This document shows, piece by piece, positions 45,482-63,850 of a stretch of DNA of 64,000 nt. Position numbers and translations under genes: made by a program. Numbering within the stretch: the first letter of the stretch is position 1; every line of letters begins with the position of its first letter. The DNA is from an uncultured Gammaproteobacteria bacterium (lineage in GTDB: Bacteria > Patescibacteriota > Microgenomatia > Levybacterales > UBA12049): the NCBI GenBank assembly GCA_964603935.1, contig CAZRWL010000001.1:2306-66305 (forward strand), given 5' to 3'. The notes beneath the pieces were generated by a model. That model was not told where the DNA came from and ran no database searches. It saw nothing but the letters and a program-made list of their open reading frames with translations.

Positions 45482-48400
45482 TTAGAAATTCAGCTTATGC
45501 AGTTTCCTGTAGAATAGCTCTCTGTTCAAGACTAGGACTGATGTGATCATCAAGACAATCAGGATAAGCATAATGTTCTTAGCAGGAAAACCTTTAGCTG
45601 TTTGAGTCTTGCCTTGAGGTGTTTCTTTTTCCTGAGTTGCCCCTAGAACTTCTTTTTCATTCTGACCTATTTGATCTAATTGAGTAATTAAGTTATCATC
45701 TGCTAAATCAGAAATAGTATTGCTGTTTCCCTCCCCATTTGCCGTAACTGTGGAAGTTGTATTTGAAGAAGCAGACGACAGAGTGGGAGTGGGAGTTGGA
45801 GCAGCAGTTACAACAACAGGAGCAACGGTTTGAGTAGTAGCTATATAATAGGAAGCTTTGGTTGCCTGAAACGTGCATGTCCCATCCGCAACAACACATT
45901 TGTGAGGCGGGAGAATGCCGTCATTTGTCCAGTTGTCCGTACCTGTTCTTGAGCGCAAAACACTGAGCGTTTGACCGTTAAGAGCGGTTCCTACAAAAAT
46001 ATTTAATGTGATGGGATTGCTGAACGAAAGTCCATGATTTGGAATACCCCATTGCAGCTTGCCGTTAACCACTATCCCCTCGCCTACTCCTGTTATAGAG
46101 TCGCTTGTAGGTTCAATCGCTGTGAGAGCGGCAATATCCAGATTGCTTCCGTCGATCTTGGTAATTTCTGTTCCGTCAGGCACTGTTACGAAACTTGTTC
46201 CTCCGTTAACAGTAACGTTAACAACAGATGTTCCTAAGGAAATTACTTTGGAAGTGATTGTCTCTCCGTTTAGGGGAGCAAATTTACCCTGTCCGTCAAT
46301 ACTTTTGAAAACCGCATTGCCAAAGCTTAATCCTTCGATTTGGTCTCCTCCGGAAATGGTAACAGCGTGCTTCCCATTTCCTCCTCTTGGCGTGGATAAT
46401 TCCCAGTTGCTTTGCAGAATTTCCCTGACATTGTATGATCCGGGAATTAAATCGGAGAATTGATAGTTACCAAATGCATCGGTTACGGTTGAGAATTCCC
46501 CTGTATCCAATATACTATTGTCGTTGGCATCCAGGAAAATCGTCCAGCCGGAAAGCGCTAATTCATTTACATCTTTGACCCGATTTATATTTGCATCCTG
46601 AAAGACTATTCCGCTAATTGCGCCTTTCTTGTCTTCATCAGGCACAACTACGTCCAAAGGAGCAGTTACCGTAATAGCTGCAGCTATGGGACTTATTCTT
46701 TTGGCAGGACCAAAACTATACGCCCGCAGGAAAACCTGATGCGAGGGGTGCGAGGTATAAGTTTGATTTTGGTCAACAAAAGGAGATGTTTGATTTATGT
46801 GTTCGCGGATATCATCCGAAGTTCCCATAATCCCGTCAGGTCCGGGTAAATTGGTTGCGCGGGTTAAGACCATGAAGTTGGAATGGCTTAACGGATTGAA
46901 AAGAGGATCATCCGGCATAAGAGGTACGAACACTGTGCCGCTTTTTCCCTTGTTAACCAGGTCAAGACCATGATCAAAAAACTGGCCGAATAGAATAAAC
47001 CATGAATTGAATGATGCGGACAAACCCATATCCGGAGCAACATTTGGAATAAATAGAGTGCCTGCAAAAGGATCGGGCAAGGTAAGTTCTCCTGCGGCGG
47101 CAACAGCTGCGGGATTGCTTGGGGTTTGATCAACAATCAAATTGCTGATCAAACGCGGTTTGGAATCAAACACAAAACCATTGGTTTGAGCGTAAGATGT
47201 TAAGTCCCCTACCTTTAACGGTCCCGGCCCATCCAGGTCAATACTAACTATTTCTCCCTCTCTAAATATCGGAGTTGTCAAACGGGGGAATATCCGGTCT
47301 GCTGCGCCAAAACTTGATTGGCCGGGCACAATATTATTCCATGATCCGTCAATCGTACGAAGACCCCAAGGCAAAGTATCTTTGGGGATTAGATTCAATA
47401 ACGGTGTGCCCGCCGCATGAGCTTCCGCAATCCTGATTTGGTCTAAAATGAATTGCAGGTCAGATCTTATCAGGGTCAGTCCTGATCCGCCAAGGAAACT
47501 GCTGCCTGCAGATATTGCCAAAATACCCTTAAGCTTCGGAGATTCTACTTTGTTAAGACCATGCTCCAGATCTATTGTCTGATCGGCAAACTGTAATTTT
47601 TCAATGTTGCGGATTGTGTCTATGCCATTGTTTTCTTTGCCCCCATTGTCAGCTCTATTATCGGTTACTGTTATTCTGCCCTGAGCATCAGGCAAGCTAA
47701 TAGTATAGTCGGCAAAATTACCTGAAAATACGGCTGTGTCAATATCATTTTCGGCAGTACCCGATACCAATATTTCACGGATTATTCTGATTTGACCCGG
47801 ATTTATTTTGCCTTCAAAGATCGCTTCCTGAAGCTCTGTCATGCTGTCAGCAGTCAGAATTTCAATGCCGGGATCATTGCTGTCTCTTACGCTAAGACGC
47901 GCATTAAGCCATGCGTCCCCGTCTATAAGATCGTTTCCGCCGCGTCCCTCAATAATATCGTTTCCGCCCCCGCCCAGAATAATATTACCGCCGGAAAAAG
48001 AGGTAATATCGTCTCCAAGCAAACTTTGCAAACCGTCAATCAGCGCAATTTGACCTGCATTATTTAATGAATTGTTTTGGCCGGAGTTACCGTCAATTTT
48101 TGAGAGTTCAATGCTGCCAAGATTGTCTCCCCGCAGAATGTCGTTGAATTGTCCGCCTGATAAACCTTCGACCGAATCGAAGCGGTCGCGAAGAGTATCT
48201 ACTTCCGGCAACATTAAGCCTTTGAAAAACATATCCGCGTTAGCCGGCTGAGGATCATTTTTATAAGTAACCCAGTCAAAACCCTGCATGCCTTCATTGC
48301 GTTCAATACCCGGATCGGAAAGCATAATGTCATCTCCTGATTCGGAGTCGTAATCGTCGTCTCCTCCGCCACCTATAATAACATCATTGCCGATAGTTGA

Positions 48401-51400
48401 GCTGTTTTGAAACGGATTGCCGTTATCGCCCTGAAGCAGATCGGCCTGCGCTCCGCCTTCAATCCAATCATCGCCTTCATTGCCAAACACCGTATCGGCA
48501 GCATCCCCTGCCAAAATAAAATCATTCCCCTCTCCGCCAAAAATCTCTTTGGGATCTCTTCCTCCGACAACAAAGTCATGGCCTGATCCTCCCAGGATAA
48601 GATCAATACCCGAACCCGCATTAATCACATCATTGCCCTCTCCGCCCTTGATATTGTCGTCGCCAAAGATGTCGGTCAAAATATCATCCCCTGTTCCTCC
48701 GATTATAAAATCATTGCCCTCTCCGCCTTCCAGACGGTCGTTTCCGCCATCTCCCCACAGTGTATCGTCTCCTTCGCTTGAGCGCATTTTGTCATTACCT
48801 TCGGTTCCTCCCATAACAATGTGCTCAATACCTGTATAGCGGATAGTGCCGTCAGGCATGATAATTGTGTCTGAGGGAAGCGTTGACGGATCCAGGGGAT
48901 CTATGTCAGCCGCTTCAATATTAAAAGCCGGATGGGAGAAAATGTCATGCGGCGGATGCTTTATTCCGGAAGTATTACGCATCGCAAGTTCCGCAAACGA
49001 GTTTTGCTCAAGCTGAGTAAGAAAATTTAATCCTGCGTTGCGGGACAAATAGTAAAGCCTGTCGCCGTCCTGCAGTTTTTCCATCTGCGTTTCAAAAACA
49101 AAGTTAAAAGTAGAACCCAGAAGTCCGCCGAACGGCATTTGTTTTTCCGCAAGACCGCCTATCCAAAAATCAACATCATTAACACCGGTAATAATCCCCT
49201 TATCCGTGCTTGCCCATGCGCCCGTACTATTTAAGAAATCAAGACGATCCTCCGGCGCTCCCTCACCGCCAAGCACCAATAGTGTTGCTGCTGCGCGTTT
49301 GTCCGCAAGAGTTACGGCGTCCGTAATGGCCGTGTGCGTGCCATACGCGGCAATAAAATTAATTAAAGACTCCGGATGTCTAATGCCAAGTTTAAATTCT
49401 ACCCAGCTGCCATAGGGTTTTAAAGCAGGGTCGCCTGCAGTTGCCAAAAAGAATTGAGCGCGGGCCGAATTAAGAGACGGAATACCCGTATCACGGCCCC
49501 TTGCTAAATTTATCGTGGCAAGGTCCAAGGGTAATCCCAATAGATTATTGCGCAGTGACTCTGTTACAAATTCGTCAATTTCGCTGCCAACCTGTCCAAT
49601 CATACCAGCTGCAATAGCTCCGGCCGCCGCATCCGGAGTTGTTCCGCTTTCTAAAAATTCCAGAGGATTTAAGAAAGCCTGAATCAAACCGATATCATTA
49701 CTTGTGCCATCCGGATTAGTGCGGGCGATTGTATCGGTCAGCATGGTGTGGCCAAAGCGGTAAACCGTATGAGCGAACTCGGCTGCAATTGCAGGATCAA
49801 TATCCGTATGATAACCGCTGAATACATTAACCTGCGGCTGAATTTTGCGCGCGAATTCCTCGAATACCAAATGCTGATATTGCATTTCCGTGCCGAATTT
49901 AGCTGCTTGAAACAAACGCTCGCCATTCCAGGAAAGACCGTTAATTGCCTCTTGAGTTATTGGGAAAACTGCAGGCACGGTACCGGGCATAAGCCATTGA
50001 GTTAAGAATTCCAGATCGCCCGTATCCAAAATTACATTCTTAGTATATTCAACCAGACGATTATGTTCGGAATGAAAAATATGATGAACAGAGGTAAGGC
50101 CGATATTTTCATTAACCCTGCCGTCTCCTGCTATAAAATGAGCGTCTAAAAGTTCGTTATCATAGGTACCAGGTTCGGATAATCCGATAACGCTATCCGA
50201 ATCGGGTTTAAGCGGTACGCCTCTGGTATTTACAGGATTGGCGTCATGAGCAATATCAGCCAGGAAAGGATGTCCGCTTCGTATTGCGCCTGTAGCATCA
50301 ACCGGAGATAAGGGATTCCCTTCTACTAAAATTGGGGAATCTGCGGGGCTTAATCCGGGCATCACCAACTGAGGAAAACCGCTTACGCCTTTTAAGAAAT
50401 TTCCGTATGCGTCAACAGCCAAAAGGGGCAGGTCAAGAACATCAAGATCATCGAGTAAAATACCCAGCATGTTTTTCGCCTGAGCTTTAACCTCTGCCCA
50501 GGTAGCCATTCCTCCTCCAAGATTGCGGCTTTCAATCAGCCGTCCCGTCGCAACCGGAGCATTTACTCCATCGGATACTAAAATGTCAAATGTAAATGCG
50601 CCTGCTATTGTAGGTGTCCAGGAAAAAACTCCGCTTACGGGATCTATAGTTGCGCCTTCCGGAGCGTCATTTCCCAGTGAAAATGTCAAAATGTCGCTAT
50701 CAGCATCCGTGGCGGCAACAGTGAAGGAAACAGGCGTGCCAAGCGTGATAGACAGATTTGGAATTGGCGCGATTACAGGAGGAGTGTTTGCCGGAGAAGG
50801 CAAGGGGGCGGGTTCAGGGATTGGCAAAGGCGTTGGTAAAGGTTCGGGCGCGGGTATTGCATTAACTGTTACAGCAGTTGATCCTGTTACTTCTGCGCTA
50901 ACGGCGGTAATTATCGTTACACCTTCGGAAAGAGCAGTAAATGAACCTGTTGAGGAGTTTATTAATCCCACCGCAATATTAGAACTTGTCCACGTAACTG
51001 CTGCTGCAATCGGATTGCCGAATTGATCAAGAGCAGCTGCGCTAAACGCCTGAACTGCTCCAACATTAATCGCAGGAGCTGCAGGACTAACGTTAATTAC
51101 AGCTAAAACAGGTTGAACTGTAACTGTTGTTGATCCGCTAACTGCTCCGCTAGTGGCGGTAATTGTAGTTATGCCGCCTTTAAGAGGAGTGAATACTCCG
51201 GTTGCGGAATCAATTGTTCCAACCAGAGGATCAGAGCTTGTCCACGATACTGCTGCTGCAATCGGATTGCCGAATTGATCAAGAGTAGCTGCGCTAAATG
51301 CCTGAACTGCTCCCACATTGATTATTGGCAAAACAGGAACTACATTAATTGTGTTTAAGACTGGGGCTTCCGCTGCCACATTGATTGTTCTTATTACCTG

Positions 51401-52933
51401 TGTTGCGGTATTTCCCGCGGCATCAGATACATTGTAAGTAATAGTGAATGTTCCGACTGCCGATGTATTAATAGGCAAGCCTGTGGTTATAATACTAGCT
51501 GTAATATCTCCGTCAACATTGTCTATGGCTGTTGCGCCGGCATCAACATAAACAGTGTTTCGTATGACTTCTACCGGGCTTGTTCCATTAAGTGTAATAA
51601 CCGGAGCAATTGTATCAGCGGGAGGAACAGGCGCCGGAGGCAAGGGAGCAACTATCACATTGACTGTTCTGATAACCGGGATCGCTGCATTTCCTGCCGA
51701 ATCTATAGCAGTATATGTAACTGTGTATTCTCCTATAACTGCCGTATTAACAGTACTGACGGAATTAACTTCAACAGCCGTATCAACATTGTCTGCAGCA
51801 GTTGCGCCCGCGTCAATATAAACAGTGTTTTGTACTATTTCTACAGGATTTTCTCCGTTGAGCGTAATAACCGGAGCAGTTACGTCAGCAGGAGGGGGAG
51901 GAGGTTCAGGAGGCAAAGGGACAGCAATTACATTAACAGTCCTTATAACAGGAGCAGCGCTGTTGCCCGCAGTATCAGCTGCTGTATAGACAACAGTGTA
52001 GGCGCCGATTACGCTTGTATTTACAGAATTTACTACATTAACCGTAACTTCCGGATCAACGTTATCAGCAGCGGTTGCGCCGGCATCAGTATAAGTTTCC
52101 CCAACAAACACGCTGACAGGATTGTCGCCAAGCATAGTAATAATAGGAGCAACGGTGTCGGTGGGCGCGGGCGGTGTAGATGGCGTATCATCAACAGGCG
52201 GAGTCGGTGTGGGAGGAGTAGGTTCAGATGCTGAAACAAAAAGAGAAGATTCTATTCTGGTCTGCGCAGCTGAAGTTTGTCCGTCTTCAAATATTAATAA
52301 TGTTTTCCCGGCATTACAATCCGCGATACAATGATCAAATATTTGCACTACAAGATAAGCATTGTTGAATTCAAATTGGCTCTGCGAGGCAGCAAAACTA
52401 AGCTGTTCATCATTATTGTTCCACCAGTCCGGTCCTTCAATGTCAAATAGGAAAACAGCATCTGTCAAACTCGTATTGCTTGGGCTTGAGTAAACGTTAA
52501 TATGGGGCTTTGAAAATTCTCCTCCTGTATTGTCATCTTTATGGATTACGAATTTCCAGCTGCCTGCTTGAAAACTGCCATTAAGAGGCGTCTCGCTTAT
52601 CCACGAAGCGGAATCAACCGGCGGAGCGTGAGACGGCTCTGTTGATGGAAAAATGTGCTGGTGATTAACTTTTCCAGGATGAAAATGCCGAAAAGAAGGA
52701 GTGTTAGTGCTGTTGATGGATGAGACTTGAGAATTACCCAACGTTGGAGCGGTAGTACTCAAAACATGACTATTGGTAAGCGCAGCTGTTTGATTATGGA
52801 AATAAAATATTTTGCTTTCGCCGCCCGATGGCGCAGGGGGTACAGCTTGAGCAAAAGCCAAAAAACTATTTGAAAAAGTTATAGTTAAGGCTAAGAAAAC
52901 TGATAAAATTTTTGATAAAATAGTTTTATTCAC
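45482..52933 (-). CDS. Giant (2483 aa) surface protein
   Basis: Domain order: signal peptide, 3x DUF5011-type Ig-like repeats, 2x Big_2, a cadherin-like repeat, peroxidase C-terminal half, RTX block, peroxidase N-terminal half, SdrD-B/CnaB-like repeat, a conserved C-terminal module, a Pro/Thr linker and a C-terminal TM anchor. Peroxidase C-half spans about aa 880-1310 (FIAGDGRVNEN..HHIFHSEHNRLV, RGRDTGIPS, DGDRLYY). RTX Ca-binding nonapeptide block spans about aa 1375-1680 (GGEGNDFIIGGTGDD...). Peroxidase N-half spans about aa 1855-2075 (RTIDGSWNN, PRLISN, FGQFFDHGLD, VDQNQTY). Confidence 0.8.
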   Translation of the reverse strand: MNKTILSKILSVFLALTITFSNSFLAFAQAVPPAPSGGESKIFYFHNQTAALTNSHVLSTTAPTLGNSQVSSINSTNTPSFRHFHPGKVNHQHIFPSTEPSHAPPVDSASWISETPLNGSFQAGSWKFVIHKDDNTGGEFSKPHINVYSSPSNTSLTDAVFLFDIEGPDWWNNNDEQLSFAASQSQFEFNNAYLVVQIFDHCIADCNAGKTLLIFEDGQTSAAQTRIESSLFVSASEPTPPTPTPPVDDTPSTPPAPTDTVAPIITMLGDNPVSVFVGETYTDAGATAADNVDPEVTVNVVNSVNTSVIGAYTVVYTAADTAGNSAAPVIRTVNVIAVPLPPEPPPPPADVTAPVITLNGENPVEIVQNTVYIDAGATAADNVDTAVEVNSVSTVNTAVIGEYTVTYTAIDSAGNAAIPVIRTVNVIVAPLPPAPVPPADTIAPVITLNGTSPVEVIRNTVYVDAGATAIDNVDGDITASIITTGLPINTSAVGTFTITYNVSDAAGNTATQVIRTINVAAEAPVLNTINVVPVLPIINVGAVQAFSAATLDQFGNPIAAAVSWTSSDPLVGTIDSATGVFTPLKGGITTITATSGAVSGSTTVTVQPVLAVINVSPAAPAINVGAVQAFSAAALDQFGNPIAAAVTWTSSNIAVGLINSSTGSFTALSEGVTIITAVSAEVTGSTAVTVNAIPAPEPLPTPLPIPEPAPLPSPANTPPVIAPIPNLSITLGTPVSFTVAATDADSDILTFSLGNDAPEGATIDPVSGVFSWTPTIAGAFTFDILVSDGVNAPVATGRLIESRNLGGGMATWAEVKAQAKNMLGILLDDLDVLDLPLLAVDAYGNFLKGVSGFPQLVMPGLSPADSPILVEGNPLSPVDATGAIRSGHPFLADIAHDANPVNTRGVPLKPDSDSVIGLSEPGTYDNELLDAHFIAGDGRVNENIGLTSVHHIFHSEHNRLVEYTKNVILDTGDLEFLTQWLMPGTVPAVFPITQEAINGLSWNGERLFQAAKFGTEMQYQHLVFEEFARKIQPQVNVFSGYHTDIDPAIAAEFAHTVYRFGHTMLTDTIARTNPDGTSNDIGLIQAFLNPLEFLESGTTPDAAAGAIAAGMIGQVGSEIDEFVTESLRNNLLGLPLDLATINLARGRDTGIPSLNSARAQFFLATAGDPALKPYGSWVEFKLGIRHPESLINFIAAYGTHTAITDAVTLADKRAAATLLVLGGEGAPEDRLDFLNSTGAWASTDKGIITGVNDVDFWIGGLAEKQMPFGGLLGSTFNFVFETQMEKLQDGDRLYYLSRNAGLNFLTQLEQNSFAELAMRNTSGIKHPPHDIFSHPAFNIEAADIDPLDPSTLPSDTIIMPDGTIRYTGIEHIVMGGTEGNDKMRSSEGDDTLWGDGGNDRLEGGEGNDFIIGGTGDDILTDIFGDDNIKGGEGNDVINAGSGIDLILGGSGHDFVVGGRDPKEIFGGEGNDFILAGDAADTVFGNEGDDWIEGGAQADLLQGDNGNPFQNSSTIGNDVIIGGGGDDDYDSESGDDIMLSDPGIERNEGMQGFDWVTYKNDPQPANADMFFKGLMLPEVDTLRDRFDSVEGLSGGQFNDILRGDNLGSIELSKIDGNSGQNNSLNNAGQIALIDGLQSLLGDDITSFSGGNIILGGGGNDIIEGRGGNDLIDGDAWLNARLSVRDSNDPGIEILTADSMTELQEAIFEGKINPGQIRIIREILVSGTAENDIDTAVFSGNFADYTISLPDAQGRITVTDNRADNGGKENNGIDTIRNIEKLQFADQTIDLEHGLNKVESPKLKGILAISAGSSFLGGSGLTLIRSDLQFILDQIRIAEAHAAGTPLLNLIPKDTLPWGLRTIDGSWNNIVPGQSSFGAADRIFPRLTTPIFREGEIVSIDLDGPGPLKVGDLTSYAQTNGFVFDSKPRLISNLIVDQTPSNPAAVAAAGELTLPDPFAGTLFIPNVAPDMGLSASFNSWFILFGQFFDHGLDLVNKGKSGTVFVPLMPDDPLFNPLSHSNFMVLTRATNLPGPDGIMGTSDDIREHINQTSPFVDQNQTYTSHPSHQVFLRAYSFGPAKRISPIAAAITVTAPLDVVVPDEDKKGAISGIVFQDANINRVKDVNELALSGWTIFLDANDNSILDTGEFSTVTDAFGNYQFSDLIPGSYNVREILQSNWELSTPRGGNGKHAVTISGGDQIEGLSFGNAVFKSIDGQGKFAPLNGETITSKVISLGTSVVNVTVNGGTSFVTVPDGTEITKIDGSNLDIAALTAIEPTSDSITGVGEGIVVNGKLQWGIPNHGLSFSNPITLNIFVGTALNGQTLSVLRSRTGTDNWTNDGILPPHKCVVADGTCTFQATKASYYIATTQTVAPVVVTAAPTPTPTLSSASSNTTSTVTANGEGNSNTISDLADDNLITQLDQIGQNEKEVLGATQEKETPQGKTQTAKGFPAKNIMLILIVLMITSVLVLNRELFYRKLHKLNF

Positions 52934-52953
52934 TTAATTATTGGATAAAAAAA

Positions 52954-55900
52954 TTACTTAAGCTTTCTATAAGAAAGCCTGTAATAGCTAAGACCCAAAA
53001 CTGTCAGCACCAATAACATTTGTACCGGCCAATTTTTCAGAATGCCCAGAATAAATTTTTCCACATCTTTTGGTGAAGGCAAACTCAAAACTCCAGATTC
53101 CTGTACTTGGGTTCCCTGTTTGTCTTCTTCGGATTGAGTAGTACCCAAAACTGTTTGGTTAAATTCCGAAGTAGATGCTGAACCAGGAACAACAGAGAGT
53201 TCATTGGAGAAATCTCCGGGCATGCAGTTATTAATCGCTTGAATTCTGAAGTAATATGGGGTGCCTGAAGACAAATCGCTTACGGTATAAGATGTGGCAT
53301 TTTTATCTCCGATATTTGTATTGCCGAACTGCATGGAGCCGGAAGAAAGTCCATACACTAACAAGTAGTGAGTTACGGGATCGTTTGCTTTGGCCCAAGT
53401 CAGGGTAACTTCATCGGATGCATTTGTAGTAACTGCGGAAAGCAGAATTGGCAGGCTTGCCGGTTTAGCATCCGAGCAGGCGGATGAAGAACTAACTGAC
53501 GTGAAGGAGGCGTTATTAGATGATTGGGATGATGCAGTAACAACAGGCGCAGAAGTTGGAGTTGCGGCCGGAACTGGCGCAGCATGGGATACGGCATAGA
53601 AAGATGCTTTTGTAGTCTGGAAAGAGCAGATTCCTGATGCGATTACACAGGTGGCAGGAGCCGCAATTCCGTCATTTGTCCATCCTGAAACTCCGGAAAC
53701 CGAACGCTGTATATCTAATGTTTGTCCATCAAGCGAAGTTCCAACGAAAATATTTAAAGTGATTGCGGGATTAAATGACAGACTTATGTTAGGAATACCC
53801 CACTGTAATACTCCATCAACAACCGCATTCTCAAGTCCCAAAATAGAACTTGCGGCAGGAATAGATGAGGCAAGAAGCGACATGTCAAAAGGTGTGCCGT
53901 CAACTCTGGTAATTATCGTACCGTCGGGAATGATTATTGCGCTTGTTCCGCCATTTCCCTCAACCGTAATAGTTGATTCTCCGCGGGATACAACCGAGGT
54001 AGTTCCTCCCGAAGCTCCGCCTGTTGAGACAAATCTGCCCTGATTTCCGATATTGAATATCTGCGCGTTACCAAAGTCGTTGTTGATGGATGCGGAGTTA
54101 TTGGCAATTGCTATAGCATGTTTGCTGCCTGAAGGAGAGGTCTGTTCCCAATTGCTCTGTACGAGTTCCCGTATATCGTACGTTCCGTCCGTAAAATCTG
54201 CGAATTGATACTCGCCATTTGCGTCTGTTATAACCGAAATCTCACCGCTGTCCAAAATTCCGTTGTTGTTGGTATCTGAAAACACTATCCATCCGGAAAT
54301 TCCTGTTTCGCCCATGTCTTTAATTCCATTGGCGTTAAGATCATCGAAAACAGTACCTGTTACGGATTGTCTTAATGAATTGGTAAGCGTGCAGATTATA
54401 TTTTCTCCGGCATCAAGATCAACTGTTGCCATGCGAGCCCCTGCATCAACAGTTGTTCCGTTGTCGGAATCTATGCAGCTGATATTTAGAATCCAATTTG
54501 ACGCGGAATCTTCCCTTAGTTCATACGAACCCTGCGCAATATCTGAAAATACTCTGACATTAGATAATTCATTTAGGCTGTTTCCGTCATCATCCAAAGA
54601 GAATCTTTCATCAAAACTGCCGTTCTCTGTTATTCTTAGTCTGAATCCAAAATCCTGCGCGCCGTTAGGTATTGTGTTTTCGATAATGGTAATCGTACCG
54701 GTTGCAGGAACAGGAATTGCAGTTACGTTAACTGTTCTGGTTACGGGGGTTGCCGCATTACCTGCGCTATCCGATACATTGTAAGTAACTGTAAAAGTGC
54801 CGGGAACAATAGTTGAAATTGGCAGTCCTGTTGTAGCAATAGCCAGAGTCAAGTCTCCGTCAATATTATCCAAAGCTGTAGCGCCGGCATCGGTATAGAC
54901 AGTGCCGATTAAGATGTTAACCGAGTTTGCTCCAAGAAGAGTAATCACAGGAGCTGTAACATCAGCAACAGGAGCTGCCGCAACTACATTCACTGTTCTT
55001 GTTACCGCAGTCGCAGCATTTCCCGCAGCATCAGACACATTGTAGACAACAGTAAATATTCCAACTGCTGATGTGTCAATTGGCAAACCTGTGGTTACAA
55101 TACCGGCTGTAATATCTCCATCAACATTGTCCAAAGCTGTAGCGCCGGCATCGGTATAGACAGTGCCGATTAAGATGTTAACAGAATTTGCGCCTGTGAT
55201 GGTAATGACCGGAGCCACAGTGTCAGCAACCACATTGACTGTTCTGGTTACTTGAGTTGCAGCATTTCCGGCTGCGTCTGAAACATTGTAGGTAACAGTG
55301 TAAGTACCAATTACTGCCGTATTAACAGGATTAACGGTAACAATATTGGCTGTGATATTTCCATCGACATTGTCCAAAGCGGTAGCTCCGGCATCAATGT
55401 AGGGAATACCTGCAACTACATTTACAGAGTTTGCGCCAAGAAGGGTAATAACCGGAGCTGTGGTATCAATGCCGGTTACGTTCACGGTTCTAGTCGCGGT
55501 AGCTGTATTGCCTGATCTATCGGTTGCAGAATACGTCACGGTCTTCGCGCCTACTATAGATGTGTCAACAGGCAGTCCTGTAGTTGTAACCGTTACTATT
55601 CCGTCGAAATCATCGGTTGCGGTTGCGCCGGCATCAACATAAACCGAATTCTGCGCAACTTCAACAGGATTTACGCCATTTAGTGTAATAACAGGTGCTT
55701 GTGTATCCGCCAATCTTCCGCTGACTGCGAAAAGGTCGGTTGTGAAATTCGACAACCCGGGACCTGTAACAGAGAATGAGTTTTGTCCGATAGGGCTTCC
55801 TATTACCGTATGTTCAATGCCCGGATTTCCAACATATCTTCTGCCGGGATTGGCAGCGTTAACTAGTAATGGATCTGTAAGACTGGAGTTTGCGCTAAAT

Positions 55901-58900
55901 GTATCCCATGTTAAGTATGGTCCAACTTGTCCGTTAAGCGCTGTGGAAAAGTTGGGTGTAGCTATTTGATCGCAGGTAACTCCTCCTCCCGCAAAGCATC
56001 CTATGTCATCGGTAACATTAATTACTCCGACCTCATCTGCAACTTCATCCACGTTTCCATATGGATGATGAATGGTATAGGTTTCGCCGGGTACTAACCC
56101 TGTAAGTCTGTATCTTAACCTGTTTTGTACGGATTGTTCTCCGTCAACAGCATCTTCTCCTGCAAACGCCGCCTCAACTGCCAGGACAATAAGCGCTGTT
56201 TGAGTTCCATTGTCTATTGCCGCTTCGGCAGACCACCAGAATCCTTCGGCTCCAAAGCCGATTTGCTCTGAAAAAGGATTTTCAGGATCAACAGGATCGG
56301 AGATACCGAATCCGTCAGTTGCTTCCATTAAATCCAATGCCAGACCATTGGAATCTTTATACCAGATCGGGAAACCTGCTATAAGACCGCCTGCAGGCGC
56401 AACCGGACCGACTTCGACCAGGCCTCCCGGAAGAGTATCTGCTACATTTACTGTTCTAGTCTTGACAGCAGTATTTCCCGCAGCATCGGCTACAGTATAA
56501 GTAACAGTGTTTGCTCCAACAATTGTGGTGTTAATCGGCAAACCGGTTGTGACAATACTGGCCGTAATATCTCCGTCAACATTGTCTATGGCAGTTGCTC
56601 CTGCGTCATTATAAGCTGCTCCAACGAATACGTTAACCGGATCTGCTCCAAGCAAAGTGATTACAGGCGCTGTAATATCTGATGTCACATTAACAGTTCT
56701 GGTTGCAGGTGCCGCAGGGTTTCCCGCGCTATCTGACACATTGTAAGTTACCGTGAATGTTCCGATTGCCGAAGTATCAATTGGAAGTCCTGCGGTTACA
56801 ATACTTCCTGTAATATTTCCGTCAACATCATCCAAAGCTGTTGCCCCTGCATCGATGTAGGGAGTTCCAACAACTACACTTACCGTATTTATTCCAAGCA
56901 GAGTGATTATGGGAGCTGTAGTATCAACTGCGCCGCCGGCTACAACTATATTAACAGTTCTAGTTACAGCAGCTGTATGTCCGGTGCTGTCAGTTACAGT
57001 ATACGTAACTGTTTTTGCTCCCAAAGTTGCAGTATCAACAGGCAGCCCTGTAACAACAATGCTTCCGGTTAAGTTTCCGTCAAGATCGTCAAGCGCTGTT
57101 GCTCCGGCGTCAATGTAAGTTGTGTTTTGAAGAACGTTTACGGAGCTATTTCCGAACAAAGTGATTACGGGCGCTCCTGCATCCGCCAGTCTTCCTGAGA
57201 CTGCAAAGAGTTCTGTTTCTATTGAATCAATTCCTTCTCCTCCGACATTGGGACCTTCAACGCGGAAGATATTATTGTTGGTTGGGCTTCCGGTTACCTC
57301 ATGCTCTATAGCTGGATTTCCAACGTATCTTCTGCTTGGATTTGCAGCATTAGTAAGCTGAGGATCAGTAAGATTAGGATCTGCATTGAAAGTCGTCCAG
57401 GTTAAGAATGGTCCGACCTGGCCGTTAAGTGGTGTAGAAAAGTTAGGAGCAGCTGCTTGATTGCATGTAACTCCTCCTCCCGCAAAGCATCCTATGTCAT
57501 CGGTAACATTGATTACTCCGACCTCATCTGCAACTTCATCTACGCTGCCGAAAGGATGAGTGATGGTGTAAGTTTCGCCCGGCACTAACCCGTCAATTCT
57601 GTATCTGACTCTGTTTTGCACCGATTGTTCTCCGTCAACTGCCTCTTCTCCGGCAAACGCTGCTTCAAGAGCCAGCACCAGTATGGTGCGCGTGCCTATC
57701 GGGCGGTCTATTCCCGCTTCCGCAGACCACCAGAATCCTTCAGCGTTGAAACCTACTGTCTGGGAGAAAGGATTGGCAGGATCAACAGGATCGGAGATAC
57801 CGAATCCGTCAGCCGCTTCCATTAAATCCAATGCCAGACCATTGGAATCTTTATACCAGATCGGGAAACCTGCTATAAGACCGCCTGCAGGCGCAATTGG
57901 ACCGACTTCTACGAGTCTGTCAGTTGGCGCGGGTATTACATTCGCTGTTCCTTTTGTGGGAGCAGTGAAAATTGCCCATTCGGAAACTCCGTCTGTTTTT
58001 CTGCCGACTGACTCGCCAACTAAAGGATAATGGTCAATGGCAAAACCCGGAGAAGTCAGAGATACGGTAACAGTATCTACAGTTGATCCCAATTCATTGG
58101 ACAAGCTGATTGTCTCGGGAGCAACATTGCTTAACCAGCCTGCCGGCGCTTCAAAAACAACTCTTCCTGCAGCCGCAACAGTCCCCAACGCAGACAAATT
58201 TTGCGGATTATTAGCGGAATTATTGATCATCCAGCCTGTTCCATTGGCTAAATCTACAGGAGAAGTGCTGTTGTTAAAAAGCTCAACCCATTCTGCTCCT
58301 GACGCAGGATTTGGCATAATTTCATTAATCAAAACTCTTTGAATAGTATCCGGAGCGGGCGCTGTAACTACGAAAACTGTAAAGTGGTTCAAACCTTTAA
58401 TAGTAATAGTGTCCGGAGATTTTTCTTCTTTTGGCTCTTCAACTTTTTGCGCGCTATTTAATTGATCAATATTTTCCGCTGATTTTATTTCGACATTTTC
58501 GGACTGTACATTTTCCGGCAGAGGCAAAGTCAAATCATATGCGAAAGTCCCATCCGTCATTGTTGAGGTAATATCATAAGCAGTATCGGACAAAGCTTTG
58601 GTTTGCTCTTTCTGTTCTTGAGTTAATTTAATTTCTTTAATTGTTAATTTGCCTGAGGAATCCGGCAATTTTGTAAACGCGATTTTTACCTTATCGTTTT
58701 GAGGAGCAGCATACTCTTTGTTTAATTCAACATTTTCCGTTGTTCCCCAACTATTAGCGTCCAAAACACTCCACAATGGGTTTGCCGAAGACTCGGCGGT
58801 TTGAGAAGGAGTCAAATCGATAGCTGCATCCGGGGAAACATTTTCGGATGGAATTTCTTCTGTTTCTGTTCCAAGAATTTCTTGAGGAGTCGCTGTTGGT

Positions 58901-59304
58901 TCCTGAACTGCCGGCTGCTCCTCTTGGGTTAAACCGGTTTCTGCGGATGGTGTTGGAGTTTGGGTTGGAGCTATTGCTTGAGGATCTGAAGGAATTACAT
59001 CGGTATTGTCAGGAACAGGAGTTGTGTCTAAAACAGGAGCAGTATCTGAAGCTGGAACTGGAACTGGAACTGGAGTTTCCGACGGAGCAACTTCTGGTGT
59101 TAAATTACCTGTTGGTAAAGTCGCTGGCTCAGGGTTTGGGTTAACAACCGGAATATTAGTATCCGCAACTGCTTCCTGAGCAAACGCAGTGTAAGTAAGC
59201 GTACCGGGCAAAACCAAATTAGCAATCAGCGAAAAGATGATTAATCTGAAAAATAATTTTTGCAAGAACTTTATTTTCATTTTGTATAACGCCCTTAGAA
59301 ACAT
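52954..59304 (-). CDS. Giant (2116 aa) surface protein
   Basis: Domain order: signal peptide, Glu/Pro/Thr-rich region, lamin-tail-like domain, then two copies of [~330-aa unknown module + 3x DUF5011 Ig-like repeats], an SdrD-B/CnaB-like repeat, a C-terminal module shared with the 2483-aa paralog, and a C-terminal TM anchor. The lamin-tail-like motif is INEIMPNPASGAEWVELFN..VDLANGTGW. The shared C-terminal module reads ..LQWGIPN.SLSF.P.ITLNIFVGT.L.GQTL... Confidence 0.8.
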   Translation of the reverse strand: MFLRALYKMKIKFLQKLFFRLIIFSLIANLVLPGTLTYTAFAQEAVADTNIPVVNPNPEPATLPTGNLTPEVAPSETPVPVPVPASDTAPVLDTTPVPDNTDVIPSDPQAIAPTQTPTPSAETGLTQEEQPAVQEPTATPQEILGTETEEIPSENVSPDAAIDLTPSQTAESSANPLWSVLDANSWGTTENVELNKEYAAPQNDKVKIAFTKLPDSSGKLTIKEIKLTQEQKEQTKALSDTAYDITSTMTDGTFAYDLTLPLPENVQSENVEIKSAENIDQLNSAQKVEEPKEEKSPDTITIKGLNHFTVFVVTAPAPDTIQRVLINEIMPNPASGAEWVELFNNSTSPVDLANGTGWMINNSANNPQNLSALGTVAAAGRVVFEAPAGWLSNVAPETISLSNELGSTVDTVTVSLTSPGFAIDHYPLVGESVGRKTDGVSEWAIFTAPTKGTANVIPAPTDRLVEVGPIAPAGGLIAGFPIWYKDSNGLALDLMEAADGFGISDPVDPANPFSQTVGFNAEGFWWSAEAGIDRPIGTRTILVLALEAAFAGEEAVDGEQSVQNRVRYRIDGLVPGETYTITHPFGSVDEVADEVGVINVTDDIGCFAGGGVTCNQAAAPNFSTPLNGQVGPFLTWTTFNADPNLTDPQLTNAANPSRRYVGNPAIEHEVTGSPTNNNIFRVEGPNVGGEGIDSIETELFAVSGRLADAGAPVITLFGNSSVNVLQNTTYIDAGATALDDLDGNLTGSIVVTGLPVDTATLGAKTVTYTVTDSTGHTAAVTRTVNIVVAGGAVDTTAPIITLLGINTVSVVVGTPYIDAGATALDDVDGNITGSIVTAGLPIDTSAIGTFTVTYNVSDSAGNPAAPATRTVNVTSDITAPVITLLGADPVNVFVGAAYNDAGATAIDNVDGDITASIVTTGLPINTTIVGANTVTYTVADAAGNTAVKTRTVNVADTLPGGLVEVGPVAPAGGLIAGFPIWYKDSNGLALDLMEATDGFGISDPVDPENPFSEQIGFGAEGFWWSAEAAIDNGTQTALIVLAVEAAFAGEDAVDGEQSVQNRLRYRLTGLVPGETYTIHHPYGNVDEVADEVGVINVTDDIGCFAGGGVTCDQIATPNFSTALNGQVGPYLTWDTFSANSSLTDPLLVNAANPGRRYVGNPGIEHTVIGSPIGQNSFSVTGPGLSNFTTDLFAVSGRLADTQAPVITLNGVNPVEVAQNSVYVDAGATATDDFDGIVTVTTTGLPVDTSIVGAKTVTYSATDRSGNTATATRTVNVTGIDTTAPVITLLGANSVNVVAGIPYIDAGATALDNVDGNITANIVTVNPVNTAVIGTYTVTYNVSDAAGNAATQVTRTVNVVADTVAPVITITGANSVNILIGTVYTDAGATALDNVDGDITAGIVTTGLPIDTSAVGIFTVVYNVSDAAGNAATAVTRTVNVVAAAPVADVTAPVITLLGANSVNILIGTVYTDAGATALDNIDGDLTLAIATTGLPISTIVPGTFTVTYNVSDSAGNAATPVTRTVNVTAIPVPATGTITIIENTIPNGAQDFGFRLRITENGSFDERFSLDDDGNSLNELSNVRVFSDIAQGSYELREDSASNWILNISCIDSDNGTTVDAGARMATVDLDAGENIICTLTNSLRQSVTGTVFDDLNANGIKDMGETGISGWIVFSDTNNNGILDSGEISVITDANGEYQFADFTDGTYDIRELVQSNWEQTSPSGSKHAIAIANNSASINNDFGNAQIFNIGNQGRFVSTGGASGGTTSVVSRGESTITVEGNGGTSAIIIPDGTIITRVDGTPFDMSLLASSIPAASSILGLENAVVDGVLQWGIPNISLSFNPAITLNIFVGTSLDGQTLDIQRSVSGVSGWTNDGIAAPATCVIASGICSFQTTKASFYAVSHAAPVPAATPTSAPVVTASSQSSNNASFTSVSSSSACSDAKPASLPILLSAVTTNASDEVTLTWAKANDPVTHYLLVYGLSSGSMQFGNTNIGDKNATSYTVSDLSSGTPYYFRIQAINNCMPGDFSNELSVVPGSASTSEFNQTVLGTTQSEEDKQGTQVQESGVLSLPSPKDVEKFILGILKNWPVQMLLVLTVLGLSYYRLSYRKLK
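54935..57915. repeat. ~1.49-kb tandem duplication inside the 2116-aa gene (two near-identical copies)
   Basis: Near-identical DNA recurs at a 1490-bp offset (the run ctcctcctcccgcaaagcatcctatgtcatcggtaacatt.. at about 55981 and about 57471). Matching near-identical reverse-strand ORFs lie at 56210-56500 and 57683-58030. Copy boundaries are approximate. Confidence 0.75.
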
Positions 59305-62417: not shown

Positions 62418-62569
62418 AATTTATTACCACCTCCTTTTCTGCGTGAAGGATATTTTAATTTTAGGAAAAATTCAGTGAGAATTATTACAAAAATGGAGAT
62501 TTTAGGCTTGTTCCTATAGTTAAAAACATTGCTCCTAAGGACATCGTAATAAAGTTAAGCATATCATGT

Positions 62570-63121
62570 TTAAGGGAAAAATAATCTTACGAGAACCGCT
62601 AGTCCATTCATAGAGACGTGTAACATTGTTGTCGTATAAAATGCTTTCCATTTTGACTCATCCTTTTTGATTAAATACACCCAAGATAACAATATACCTG
62701 CTGGGATAATAGTTAAAATTGCTAACAATTCTAAATGAATTAAGGCAAATATAATTGCGGATACAAGTATTAATAAAACCTTTTTCTTTGTAAATATTGA
62801 TAAGAATTGCATTGCGAAATTTTGAAAAATCATTGTTTCAAAAGGCGGGAAAATAACCATTGAAATTATTGCTAATTTGCCTAAGCTCATTGTTGTAGTA
62901 AAACTTTGGTCAACAAAGAAATTGTCAATTAAATTTAAGCCAACCCCAGAAATTAACCCAACCGGTATAAGAATAAATATTAACACAAGAACCGCTACGC
63001 CAATTTTTGCTATCAAACCCAAAAGGGTAAATTCAACTATTAATCTAAAGGTTGAATAATTTTTAGCGTTATCGAAATATTTTGTTATTAAATTTAGTAG
63101 CCTATTTAGAATTGTCTTCAT
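62570..63121 (-). CDS. CPBP-family intramembrane metalloprotease (CAAX protease/Abi)
   Basis: TM protein with FETMIFQ (EExxxR-like), FALIH (FxxxH) and HVSMN (HxxxN/D) motifs. Confidence 0.55.
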   Translation of the reverse strand: MKTILNRLLNLITKYFDNAKNYSTFRLIVEFTLLGLIAKIGVAVLVLIFILIPVGLISGVGLNLIDNFFVDQSFTTTMSLGKLAIISMVIFPPFETMIFQNFAMQFLSIFTKKKVLLILVSAIIFALIHLELLAILTIIPAGILLSWVYLIKKDESKWKAFYTTTMLHVSMNGLAVLVRLFFP

Positions 63122-63196
63122 ATATATTTTAACTTTGGCACATTAAGCGCCAACTGGCCTTCCAATATTAGCATGCTTCGAATTAAGTTTCAGAAA

Positions 63197-63475
63197 CTAT
63201 TTATTGAAGAATTCTTTTAGCATGGTTCTCAATGTGGTTTTGCCTTTTGTGGTTTTAAAATATTTTTCTCTCCTTTTTGCGTCTTTTATATCCCTATACG
63301 CTTCATAATGAATAAGCTCGAATGGCGCATAAGGTTTCGTGGAAAATTCCTCTTTATCGTTGTGTTGCAAAAATCTTTTCTTTAAGTCTGTTGTAAAACC
63401 CGTATAGATAAAATTACGACTGAGGCTTTTTAGGATGTATACGTAATAAAATTTCATTGCTTGAGACAATGCCAT
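63197..63475 (-). CDS. Small GIY-YIG nuclease-family protein (YhbQ/UPF0213-like)
   Basis: MKFYYVYILKSLSRNFIYTGFTTDLKKRFLQHN.. is a GIY-YIG catalytic motif with no extra domains. The start may be 63475 or 63457. Confidence 0.7.
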   Translation of the reverse strand: MALSQAMKFYYVYILKSLSRNFIYTGFTTDLKKRFLQHNDKEEFSTKPYAPFELIHYEAYRDIKDAKRREKYFKTTKGKTTLRTMLKEFFNK

Positions 63476-63570
63476 GCGACATATCTCTTTGGGGACGTAC
63501 CAGTCGGTACATCCCTACCTCACCACTCATTGGCGAAGCGATGAACCCGAATGCAATGAGTGGTTCGTTG

Positions 63571-63850
63571 CTCCCCCGAGAGGACTCGGACCTCTAACCT
63601 TGTCCTTACAAAATTCCTTCTGTTACCAAAAGGTTTGGACTATCTCATCCCCCTACCATTTGATAGGGGATCGGGTATATAGTCTCTACACATTTACCAC
63701 ATTCAGTTTGCATGAACGTGGACTTAGCTCGGGATTACCCTTCGATAAACTCAGGGTTTCCCCGAATTAGCCCGATTTTTCATCCCAAATTACTTTGGGA
63801 AGCTGCGTTATGGTTCACAGGGACCTGCTCTACCATTGAGCTACAGGGGA
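63571..63850 (-). tRNA. tRNA-Asn(GUU) interrupted by a 208-nt group I intron in the anticodon loop (exons 63850-63817 and 63608-63571, minus strand)
   Basis: Acceptor stem UCCCCUG/CGGGGGA, D-arm UA-GCUC-AAUGGUA-GAGC, T-arm AGAGG-UCCGAGU-CCUCU. The spliced anticodon loop is CUGU|UAA, giving anticodon GUU. The U1-A72 start resembles E. coli tRNA-Asn. CCA is not encoded. Confidence 0.65.
63609..63816 (-). ncRNA. Group I intron (small, IC3-like) within tRNA-Asn
   Basis: The 5' exon ends with U, forming P1 CUGU/GCAG with a U.G wobble at the splice site. The intron ends with G. R-like GUAGAGACUAUA and S-like GAGAUAGUCC elements form a perfect 6-bp P7 (GACUAU/AUAGUC). P/Q-like elements are UUCGGGGAAACC and AAUCCCGAGC. 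Confidence 0.6.

Follow-up and report, generated by a model that had tools for sequence, protein, structure and literature searches.

The DNA analysed here, which we refer to as the window, is a 64,000-nt stretch of contig CAZRWL010000001.1. Near its right-hand end, a tRNA-Asn(GUU) gene on the minus strand is split by a group I intron and followed directly by a hairpin-rich leader and a small gene for a GIY-YIG nuclease; leader and gene together are called the GIY-YIG cassette below. On the basis of current results, this tRNA-Asn gene of Levybacteria very probably carries two independent insertions, the intron and the cassette. With regard to the host, protein similarity assigns the window to Candidatus Levybacteria (Microgenomatia, Patescibacteria): its GroEL is 100% identical to a protein of a Candidatus Levybacteria metagenome-assembled genome, and the next matches also come from Levybacteria. 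MetRS, LepA, MurJ and PcrA are encoded in the window as well.

With default settings, which do not allow introns, ARAGORN detected no tRNA anywhere in the 64-kb window. When introns were allowed, it called a tRNA-Asn(gtt) of 73 nt, interrupted by a 208-nt intron ('cctgt-Intron-taagg'), on the minus strand of 63900-63500, and the same tRNA-Asn was called after in-silico removal of the intron. The boundaries in this call (63816-63609) agree exactly with a preliminary description of the locus, made from the sequence alone, in which a tRNA-Asn could be assembled only by removing 208 nt (63609-63816) between U35 and U36. The 5' exon (63817-63850; tRNA positions 1-35, ending ...CCCUGU) aligns with an intron-less orthologue in a relative (L126; L numbers denote the loci that were compared with the window). 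The 3' exon (positions 36-73) occupies 63571-63608, to which the ARAGORN call adds C63570. The discriminator base is G73, and CCA is not encoded (CAA follows). A 98-aa open reading frame (ORF) on the plus strand (63474-63770), already regarded as an artefact in the preliminary description, is most likely spurious: Pfam gave no match for it, and it runs antisense to the tRNA, the intron and the leader, all of which are supported RNA features of the other strand.

The intron itself (63609-63816 on the minus strand, inserted at 35/36 and without an internal ORF) was recognized by the Rfam covariance model RF00028, whose full-model match at 63806-63616 reached 88.6 bits (gathering score 50; E-value 2.8e-21) and was the sole Rfam hit in the 64 kb. 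Helices P1-P9 are all present, with GUAA tetraloops in L2 and L9, and P3' abuts P8, so that P7.1 and P7.2 are absent from the sequence as read by eye. The internal guide CGCAG (63803-63807) pairs with exon CUGU and intron G1, which places U35.G at the 5' splice site; each of the P1 pairs (C-G, U-A, G-C and U.G) is kept in all 33 related introns that were aligned (see below), and the terminal G (63609) is likewise invariant. The two strands of P7, GACUAU (63679-63684) and AUAGUC (63638-63643), form a pseudoknot of six pairs, again without variation in 33 of 33 sequences. The P1 helix with its U.G pair, the terminal G and the perfect P7 had all been noted beforehand in the window.

To collect this family, species-representative genomes were scanned with a core pattern consisting of GGTAATCCCGAG, a gap of 20-50 nt and GTAGAGACTATA. 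The scan retrieved 43 loci, mostly from Microgenomates (Gottesman-, Roizman-, Woese-, Davies-, Levy-, Curtiss- and Shapirobacteria). After in-silico splicing, 24 of them were tRNA-Asn(GUU) genes with an intron of 174-242 nt at 35/36, eight were tRNA-Asp(GUC) genes interrupted at the same site, and a few were tRNA-Leu or tRNA-Met genes. For the calling of splice boundaries at least four of the five anticodon-stem pairs were required, as a threshold of five misses the window and most homologues owing to a G27.A43 mismatch. Global pairwise identity between introns separated families only weakly (background approximately 0.6), and the pattern-based family and covariation were used instead.

For the covariation analysis, the helices were read in the window sequence and then projected onto the alignment of 33 introns (55 pairs). 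Standard pairs were formed in 91.3% of the cells, as compared with 77% in shuffled alignments and 34-50% when the partners were slid by 1-3 columns. Changes on both sides were found in 32 of the 55 pairs (in P2, P3, P6, P8 and P9), and none of 500 shuffles reached the covariation score; P4, like P1 and P7, did not vary. The window intron carries every position that is invariant among the 33. A chance match is therefore excluded by the Rfam E-value together with the covariation controls, and it is confirmed, as first proposed, that tRNA-Asn(GUU) is interrupted between U35 and U36 and that the interruption is a compact group I intron without an endonuclease gene of its own. That this intron splices itself is expected by analogy with a homologue for which self-splicing in vitro has been demonstrated.

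Group I introns at position 35/36 in Patescibacteria genes for tRNA-Asn and for tRNA-Asp have recently been described by Nakagawa et al. (mSystems 2026, PMC13011429; preprint 10.1101/2025.07.03.662931), who found 15 tRNA-Asn(GUU) and three tRNA-Asp(GUC) genes with such introns in 95 complete Patescibacteria genomes and classed them as subgroup IA. Most of these introns carry no endonuclease gene, and four tRNA-Asn introns contain HNH genes. Two introns, in the tRNA-Asp of GCA_001029755.1 and in a Saccharimonadia tRNA-Asn, self-spliced precisely in vitro; the junction at 35/36 was determined by sequencing, and ligation no longer took place once the terminal G had been changed to C (PMC13011429). 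One of our loci (L013) contains exactly the tRNA-Asp precursor of GCA_001029755.1 that was spliced in that study; its intron belongs to one sequence family with the window intron, to which it is 71% identical over 198 aligned positions, and the P3/P4/P7 core is identical. Thus, this kind of intron is already known, and the window provides a further example.

The same study reported that annotation tools overlook such genes or mis-call them, often as tRNA-Thr(UGU) with an intron at 33/34 (PMC13011429). A shift of the boundaries by two bases would give this reading in the window too, and ARAGORN does call it for many homologues. However, the shift would leave a U instead of the G at the end of the window intron, ARAGORN itself calls Asn with 35/36 in the window, the exons match those of intron-less tRNA-Asn orthologues, and the experimentally sequenced junction of homologues lies at 35/36. 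A tRNA-Thr(UGU) gene at this locus thus has a vanishingly small probability. Other calls were also examined: L086 and L099, called 'Asp' and 'Ser' by ARAGORN, have tRNA-Asn genes with introns at 35/36, and a 'tRNA-Leu(caa) with intron' in L100 (3612-3888; also in L101 and L105) is a tRNA-Met(CAU) with a short D arm and a 206-nt group I intron at 33/34, a type listed for Microgenomatia in PMC13011429.

Two relatives of the locus (L125 and L126) were found via the neighbouring LUD-domain gene. L126 (GCA_964646925.1) is 80% identical to the window over 132 nt of the upstream region (63944-63813) and 97% identical over the 3' part of the tRNA (63600-63570); its tRNA-Asn is uninterrupted, and neither the intron nor the GIY-YIG cassette is present. 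The tRNA-Asn of L125 is intron-less as well. Therefore, the presence of the intron varies among close relatives, and its gain or loss was recent, given an orthologous intron-less allele in a close relative. The window tRNA-Asn and the intron-less orthologue have the same acceptor, D and T stems, while the anticodon stem and the T loop differ.

The region beside the tRNA-Asn is a variable islet. The gene content directly downstream (62440-63569 in the window) is wholly different among the window, L125 and L126, being inverted in L126 relative to a conserved GNAT-ArsR-LUD block, and fragments resembling the tRNA 3' end lie downstream of the tRNA in both relatives. Palindromic sequences were also observed around tRNA-Asn copies. 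At approximately 3495-3595 of L125, a 13-nt inverted repeat (ATAGAAACTCCGC / GCGGAGTTTCTAT) lies on either side of the intron-less tRNA-Asn and would lengthen its acceptor stem. A remnant tRNA-Asn copy at approximately 3600-3700 of L125, the 3' half of which is nearly identical to the window 3' exon, has a perfect 39-nt palindrome in its D arm/D loop, and a perfect 20-nt palindrome (CCTGCCTGCCGGCAGGCAGG) is inserted in the D arm/D loop of a tRNA-Asn copy in L099 (330-410).

It was then considered whether the split gene could be undergoing decay as a pseudogene, its intron being inactive or its tRNA non-functional, in a cell that uses another tRNA-Asn. U55 of the tRNA T loop is nearly universal. 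The T loop in the window (63590-63584) reads UCCGAGU, with C55 (approximately at 63587) in its place; this base, the G27.A43 mismatch and the lack of an encoded CCA might speak for decay, and just 64 kb of the genome are visible. However, all core positions invariant in the 33 homologues are intact, every helix pairs in the window, and the acceptor, D and T stems match those of the L126 orthologue. Moreover, both peculiarities recur in relatives: the window tRNA-Asn has C55 in common with L016, L021, L023, L040 and L042. The usual UUCGA is found in the intron-less orthologues of L125 and L126. A pseudogene is thus very improbable. C55 was additionally seen in L009, L086 and L100, and recurs across several Microgenomatia tRNA-Asn, tRNA-Asp and tRNA-Met genes.

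Downstream of the tRNA, an ORF of 92 codons (63197-63475, minus strand) matches the GIY-YIG domain PF01541 over residues 10-79 (E-value 1.4e-15) and no other Pfam domain. More than 1000 homologues with 65-88% identity were found in Patescibacteria, and these proteins of 86-100 aa all begin with MKFYYVY. The real start is therefore probably M7 at 63457, giving an 86-aa protein (63197-63457) with a single Slx1/UPF0213-like domain. The ORF and its domain thus stand as first described, and the start codon probably has to be revised. The first six codons of the longer reading (63458-63475) are probably a translated leader hairpin, as in database gene calls. Many of the latter (P0016, P0020, P0046 and others) have N-terminal extensions that correspond to the translated hairpin H2 of the leader (see below). 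Residues of the catalytic type (Y7, Y18, G20, R28, H32 and E52) are conserved in this predicted nuclease, and 32 residues are invariant across 24 diverse family members, a pattern pointing to strong purifying selection.

Sequence and profile searches against PDB placed the protein within the GIY-YIG superfamily. The single sequence matched the UPF0213 proteins BH0048 (1zg2, E-value 2.7e-4) and EF2693 (1ywl, E-value 7.5e-3) in PDB, and a family profile matched BH0048 (5.4e-7), EF2693 (3.1e-5) and SLX1 (2.6e-3), with no chain of I-TevI or UvrC at E-values up to 0.01. No PHROGs family was matched. In the classification of Dunin-Horkawicz et al. (PMC1564403), the Slx1 branch is set apart from the branch of homing endonucleases and UvrC, and the window protein would accordingly be a member of the Slx1 branch, as judged by these similarities.

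Between the tRNA and the gene lies a structured leader (63458-63569), whose predicted fold has an energy of -47.1 kcal/mol (z -4.47). Hairpin A (63566-63562 with 63547-63543) follows the tRNA 3' end immediately and hairpin H2 (63515-63506 with 63501-63492) precedes the start codon; both are conserved, with compensatory changes in nine of 13 pairs among 17 leaders, and the T.G wobbles lie on the sense strand, as expected of RNA. A long-range helix (63563-63554 with 63532-63523) that is an alternative to hairpin A recurs in place with different sequences; evidence for it is suggestive, as it is weakly significant in individual sequences (P⩽0.05 in 10 of 45 leaders). No Rfam family matched the leader above the gathering score, and an E-value scan of 63150-63620 returned chance-level values (0.5-5). 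Palindromic hairpins resembling H2 (GGTAC[CA]G..T.GTACC) form tandem arrays in the leaders of L104, L094, L088, L073 and L112, and also occur after the GIY-YIG ORF in L055, L057, L062, L070, L084, L088, L106 and L111; L088 belongs to both sets, and in some loci the hairpins flank the gene on both sides.

To examine the genomic context of the cassette, we used 80 metagenome loci encoding close GIY-YIG homologues, 69 of which have at least 300 nt of upstream flank. A same-strand tRNA ends no more than 300 nt upstream of the GIY-YIG gene in 50 of these 69, the gene lying 75-240 nt downstream of the tRNA or transfer-messenger RNA (tmRNA); the chance expectation is approximately 1% by our own estimate (~45 tRNAs, ~1 Mb), which was not computed. 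At least seven kinds of tRNA are represented, including Gln (24 loci), intron-less Asn (nine), Trp (five) and some Ser and Met. In L079, beyond the 50, the upstream gene is a tmRNA, which was detected by the Rfam scan only. Only a minority of the upstream tRNAs contain an intron (Asn in L074, L086/L089 and L099; Met in L100). Two GIY-YIG copies occur within 8 kb in seven of the 80 loci, and many family members reside on contigs of approximately 1 kb, as repeats do. In L044, L058, L078, L088, L093 and L103, the two genes are often arranged in the order GIY-YIG, tRNA, GIY-YIG, and the second copy is 33-58% identical; several GIY-YIG subfamilies appear to populate tRNA clusters.

GIY-YIG enzymes are classic endonucleases of group I introns, and the gene had accordingly been suggested to be a relic or trans-acting homing partner. 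On this explanation, the protein would be the homing endonuclease of the intron, moved outside it or acting in trans, and would cut intron-less tRNA-Asn alleles, into which the intron would then be copied. The adjacency of intron and gene in the window agrees with this, and so do the four distinct intron-bearing tRNA-Asn loci with a cassette (the window and the three mentioned above) and the variable presence of the intron among relatives. However, of 30 further tRNA-Asn/Asp loci that carry an intron of this family and have downstream sequence, only two are followed by a GIY-YIG gene (L030 and L032), and those two genes are distant (36-47% identity) and have unrelated leaders. Conversely, most cassette copies follow intron-less tRNAs, and one follows a tmRNA. 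The protein scored 17.6 bits against the group I intron endonuclease family NCBIfam TIGR01453 (cut-off 56.05), its 86 aa contain no DNA-binding domain (PF01541 is the only Pfam match), and the PDB profile hits are Slx1/UPF0213 proteins and not I-TevI. The endonucleases encoded inside tRNA-Asn introns are of the HNH type (PMC13011429). The suggestion of a homing partner is thus not supported, and we give it a very slim probability.

Signatures of insertion were observed at the other end of the cassette. In eight of 46 distinct loci, the stop codon is followed by 15-34 nt that repeat the 3' end of the tRNA in direct orientation. In L099, tRNA-Asn is followed by the cassette, an 18-nt repeat and the flank; in L035, that flank comes directly after the tRNA, and these two loci form a filled/empty site pair. 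In the window, the right border would lie at 63116-63163 on the minus strand, where a displaced remnant of the tRNA-Asn 3' end (GGAAGGCCA) is followed by the native 3' flank (GTTGGCGCTTAATGTGCCAAAGTT...). Positions 63158-63116 align with the tRNA end and flank of L005, which lacks a cassette, and with the flank behind the cassette in L084, and none of 500 shuffles reached either score. As the repeat in the window is not clean, insertion there is deduced from flank homology, which together with the filled/empty pair indicates that the unit from 63569 to approximately 63159 (~410 nt) is an insertion. The GIY-YIG gene is its only ORF, and no site-specific recombinase (integrase) is encoded in it.

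On the other hand, the gene could be a resident Slx1/YhbQ-like housekeeping nuclease for DNA repair or tRNA/RNA metabolism, which is merely co-transcribed with the tRNA, is not mobile and has the leader as its 5' untranslated region for regulation or processing. The UPF0213/SLX1 fold and the strong purifying selection favor such a role, as do the covarying leader with its sense-strand wobbles and the lack of a promoter of its own; in addition, fusions of prokaryotic Slx1-like domains with tRNA methyltransferases led others to propose a function in RNA metabolism (PMC1564403). However, a resident gene would hardly follow at least seven kinds of tRNA and a tmRNA or be present twice within 8 kb in seven of 80 loci, and the direct repeats, the filled/empty sites, the orthologous loci of close relatives without the gene and the many short contigs are difficult to reconcile with it. 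A YhbQ-type housekeeping nuclease was the fallback offered in the preliminary description: the fold family (BH0048, EF2693 and SLX1) was correctly recognized, and 'housekeeping' is probably wrong, given that the gene is part of an insertion of ~410 nt at the 3' end of the tRNA. We regard a resident role as possible, although rather unlikely.

Taking the two insertions together, the following course of events may be proposed. The transcript would fold into a P1-P9 ribozyme within the tRNA-Asn precursor; exogenous guanosine would attack after U35, the U.G pair of P1 with the guide CGCAG holding this base in place, and the terminal G would direct exon ligation to yield a 72-nt tRNA with the anticodon GUU. 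The structure and boundaries of the intron are established by the present analysis, and catalysis would follow by analogy with the homologue that self-splices in vitro. The cassette of hairpin-rich leader and GIY-YIG gene would have entered directly after the tRNA 3' end, pushing the original 3' end and flank downstream, as a member of a large family found after many tRNA genes with or without introns. It is probably transcribed together with the tRNA, from the tRNA promoter: no sigma-70-like promoter was found between tRNA and GIY-YIG ORF in a scan that covered the sigma-70 consensus only, which fits read-through, itself an inference. Intron and cassette would be neighbors because both target tRNA-Asn, not because they act jointly.

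Beyond the insertion itself, the leader and the 86-aa Slx1-like gene look like an undescribed small mobile unit. In its full form, the proposal is that they constitute a Patescibacteria mobile cassette of ~0.4 kb that inserts at the 3' ends of tRNA and tmRNA genes, regenerates the tRNA and leaves a 3'-end repeat, has no promoter of its own and is expressed by read-through from the tRNA promoter, its hairpins serving as signals for processing or stability or as substrate of the nuclease. We hold the arguments for and against this full proposal to be about evenly balanced. Several observations count against our interpretation of the locus. Both C55 and the G27.A43 mismatch are unusual for a tRNA, even though they recur in relatives. 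The promoter scan was limited as stated above. No tRNA was called upstream in 19 of the 69 loci, the tmRNA-bearing L079 being one of them. Significant direct repeats were found in only eight of the 46 cassette loci, and the repeat of the tRNA 3' end in the window is degenerate (GGAAGGCCA versus GGGGGAGC; P=0.78).

Elsewhere in the window, two very large ORFs lie side by side (2483 and 2116 aa; 45482-59304, minus strand). They encode repetitive sequences resembling surface proteins, and their G+C content is 0.43-0.48, as compared with 0.33-0.40 in the rest of the window.

With regard to significance, the intron is one more member, found in Levybacteria, of a class that was published in 2025-26 and explains the seeming lack of tRNA-Asn in many Patescibacteria genomes and the biased completeness estimates. 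What is added here is that the compact intron is common in tRNA-Asn of draft Microgenomates genomes too and that an intron-less orthologue exists in a close relative. The GIY-YIG family is very large and highly conserved, located directly after tRNA genes and equipped with a structured leader and signatures of insertion. The tRNA-3'-end cassette itself may be new, as no description of a tRNA-adjacent GIY-YIG cassette was found in the searchable literature. If the mobile cassette is real, it would be a new and extremely small kind of tRNA-targeting element that is likely to make assemblies break at tRNA loci, and the Slx1 branch, supposedly non-selfish, would include a member that behaves as a selfish element.

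A comparison with known introns shows that the window intron shares with those of PMC13011429 the 35/36 site, host tRNA, phylum, exon-final U, terminal G and absence of an internal endonuclease gene. Its closest matches among the complete genomes of that study are three introns, two from Microgenomatia tRNA-Asp and one from Paceibacteria tRNA-Asn, whereas most other tRNA-Asn introns listed there are longer (222-312 nt) and, in our own reading of the sequences, have extra elements between P7 and P3'. Judged against the Table S3 sequences of PMC13011429, the window intron belongs with the compact Microgenomatia type. This type resides in tRNA-Asn in the window and in 24 draft genomes, and it is at least as common there as in tRNA-Asp of draft Microgenomates genomes. 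Small, ORF-less and self-splicing introns in the anticodon loop are also known from Azoarcus and cyanobacteria. The introns of Azoarcus tRNA-Ile(CAU) and cyanobacterial tRNA-Leu(UAA), of subgroup IC3, resemble the window intron in size (~200-250 nt), in their location in the anticodon loop, in lacking an ORF and in similar core motifs (AAUUCGGGGAAACC..., GUAGAGACUA), self-splicing being established in those systems. However, they are inserted at 33/34 or 34/35 instead of 35/36 and reside in other host tRNAs, and the global identity of the window intron to the IC3 introns of Nostoc tRNA-Leu and Acidobacteriota tRNA-Ile2 (0.58-0.59) is at background level.

As for the cassette, stand-alone UPF0213 proteins (BH0048, EF2693 and the Escherichia coli YhbQ class) consist of a single GIY-YIG domain of ~90 aa, as does the window protein, whereas the window gene is part of a tRNA-3'-end cassette with a conserved hairpin leader. 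The segB gene of phage T4 is a free-standing GIY-YIG homing endonuclease gene in a tRNA gene cluster. Such segB-like genes share with the window gene the position between genes in a tRNA region and the variable presence among relatives; the Seg proteins, however, belong to the I-TevI/UvrC branch and have a C-terminal DNA-binding domain, in contrast with the Slx1-branch protein of the window, which consists of the catalytic domain only. Finally, unlike the genomic islands that tyrosine integrases insert at tRNA or tmRNA genes, the cassette encodes no integrase, spans only ~0.4 kb with one 86-aa nuclease and has repeats that vary from 15 to 34 nt. Cassette and islands have in common that they target the 3' ends of these genes, with an intact tRNA kept on the left and, for the cassette in some loci, a direct repeat of the 3' end on the right.

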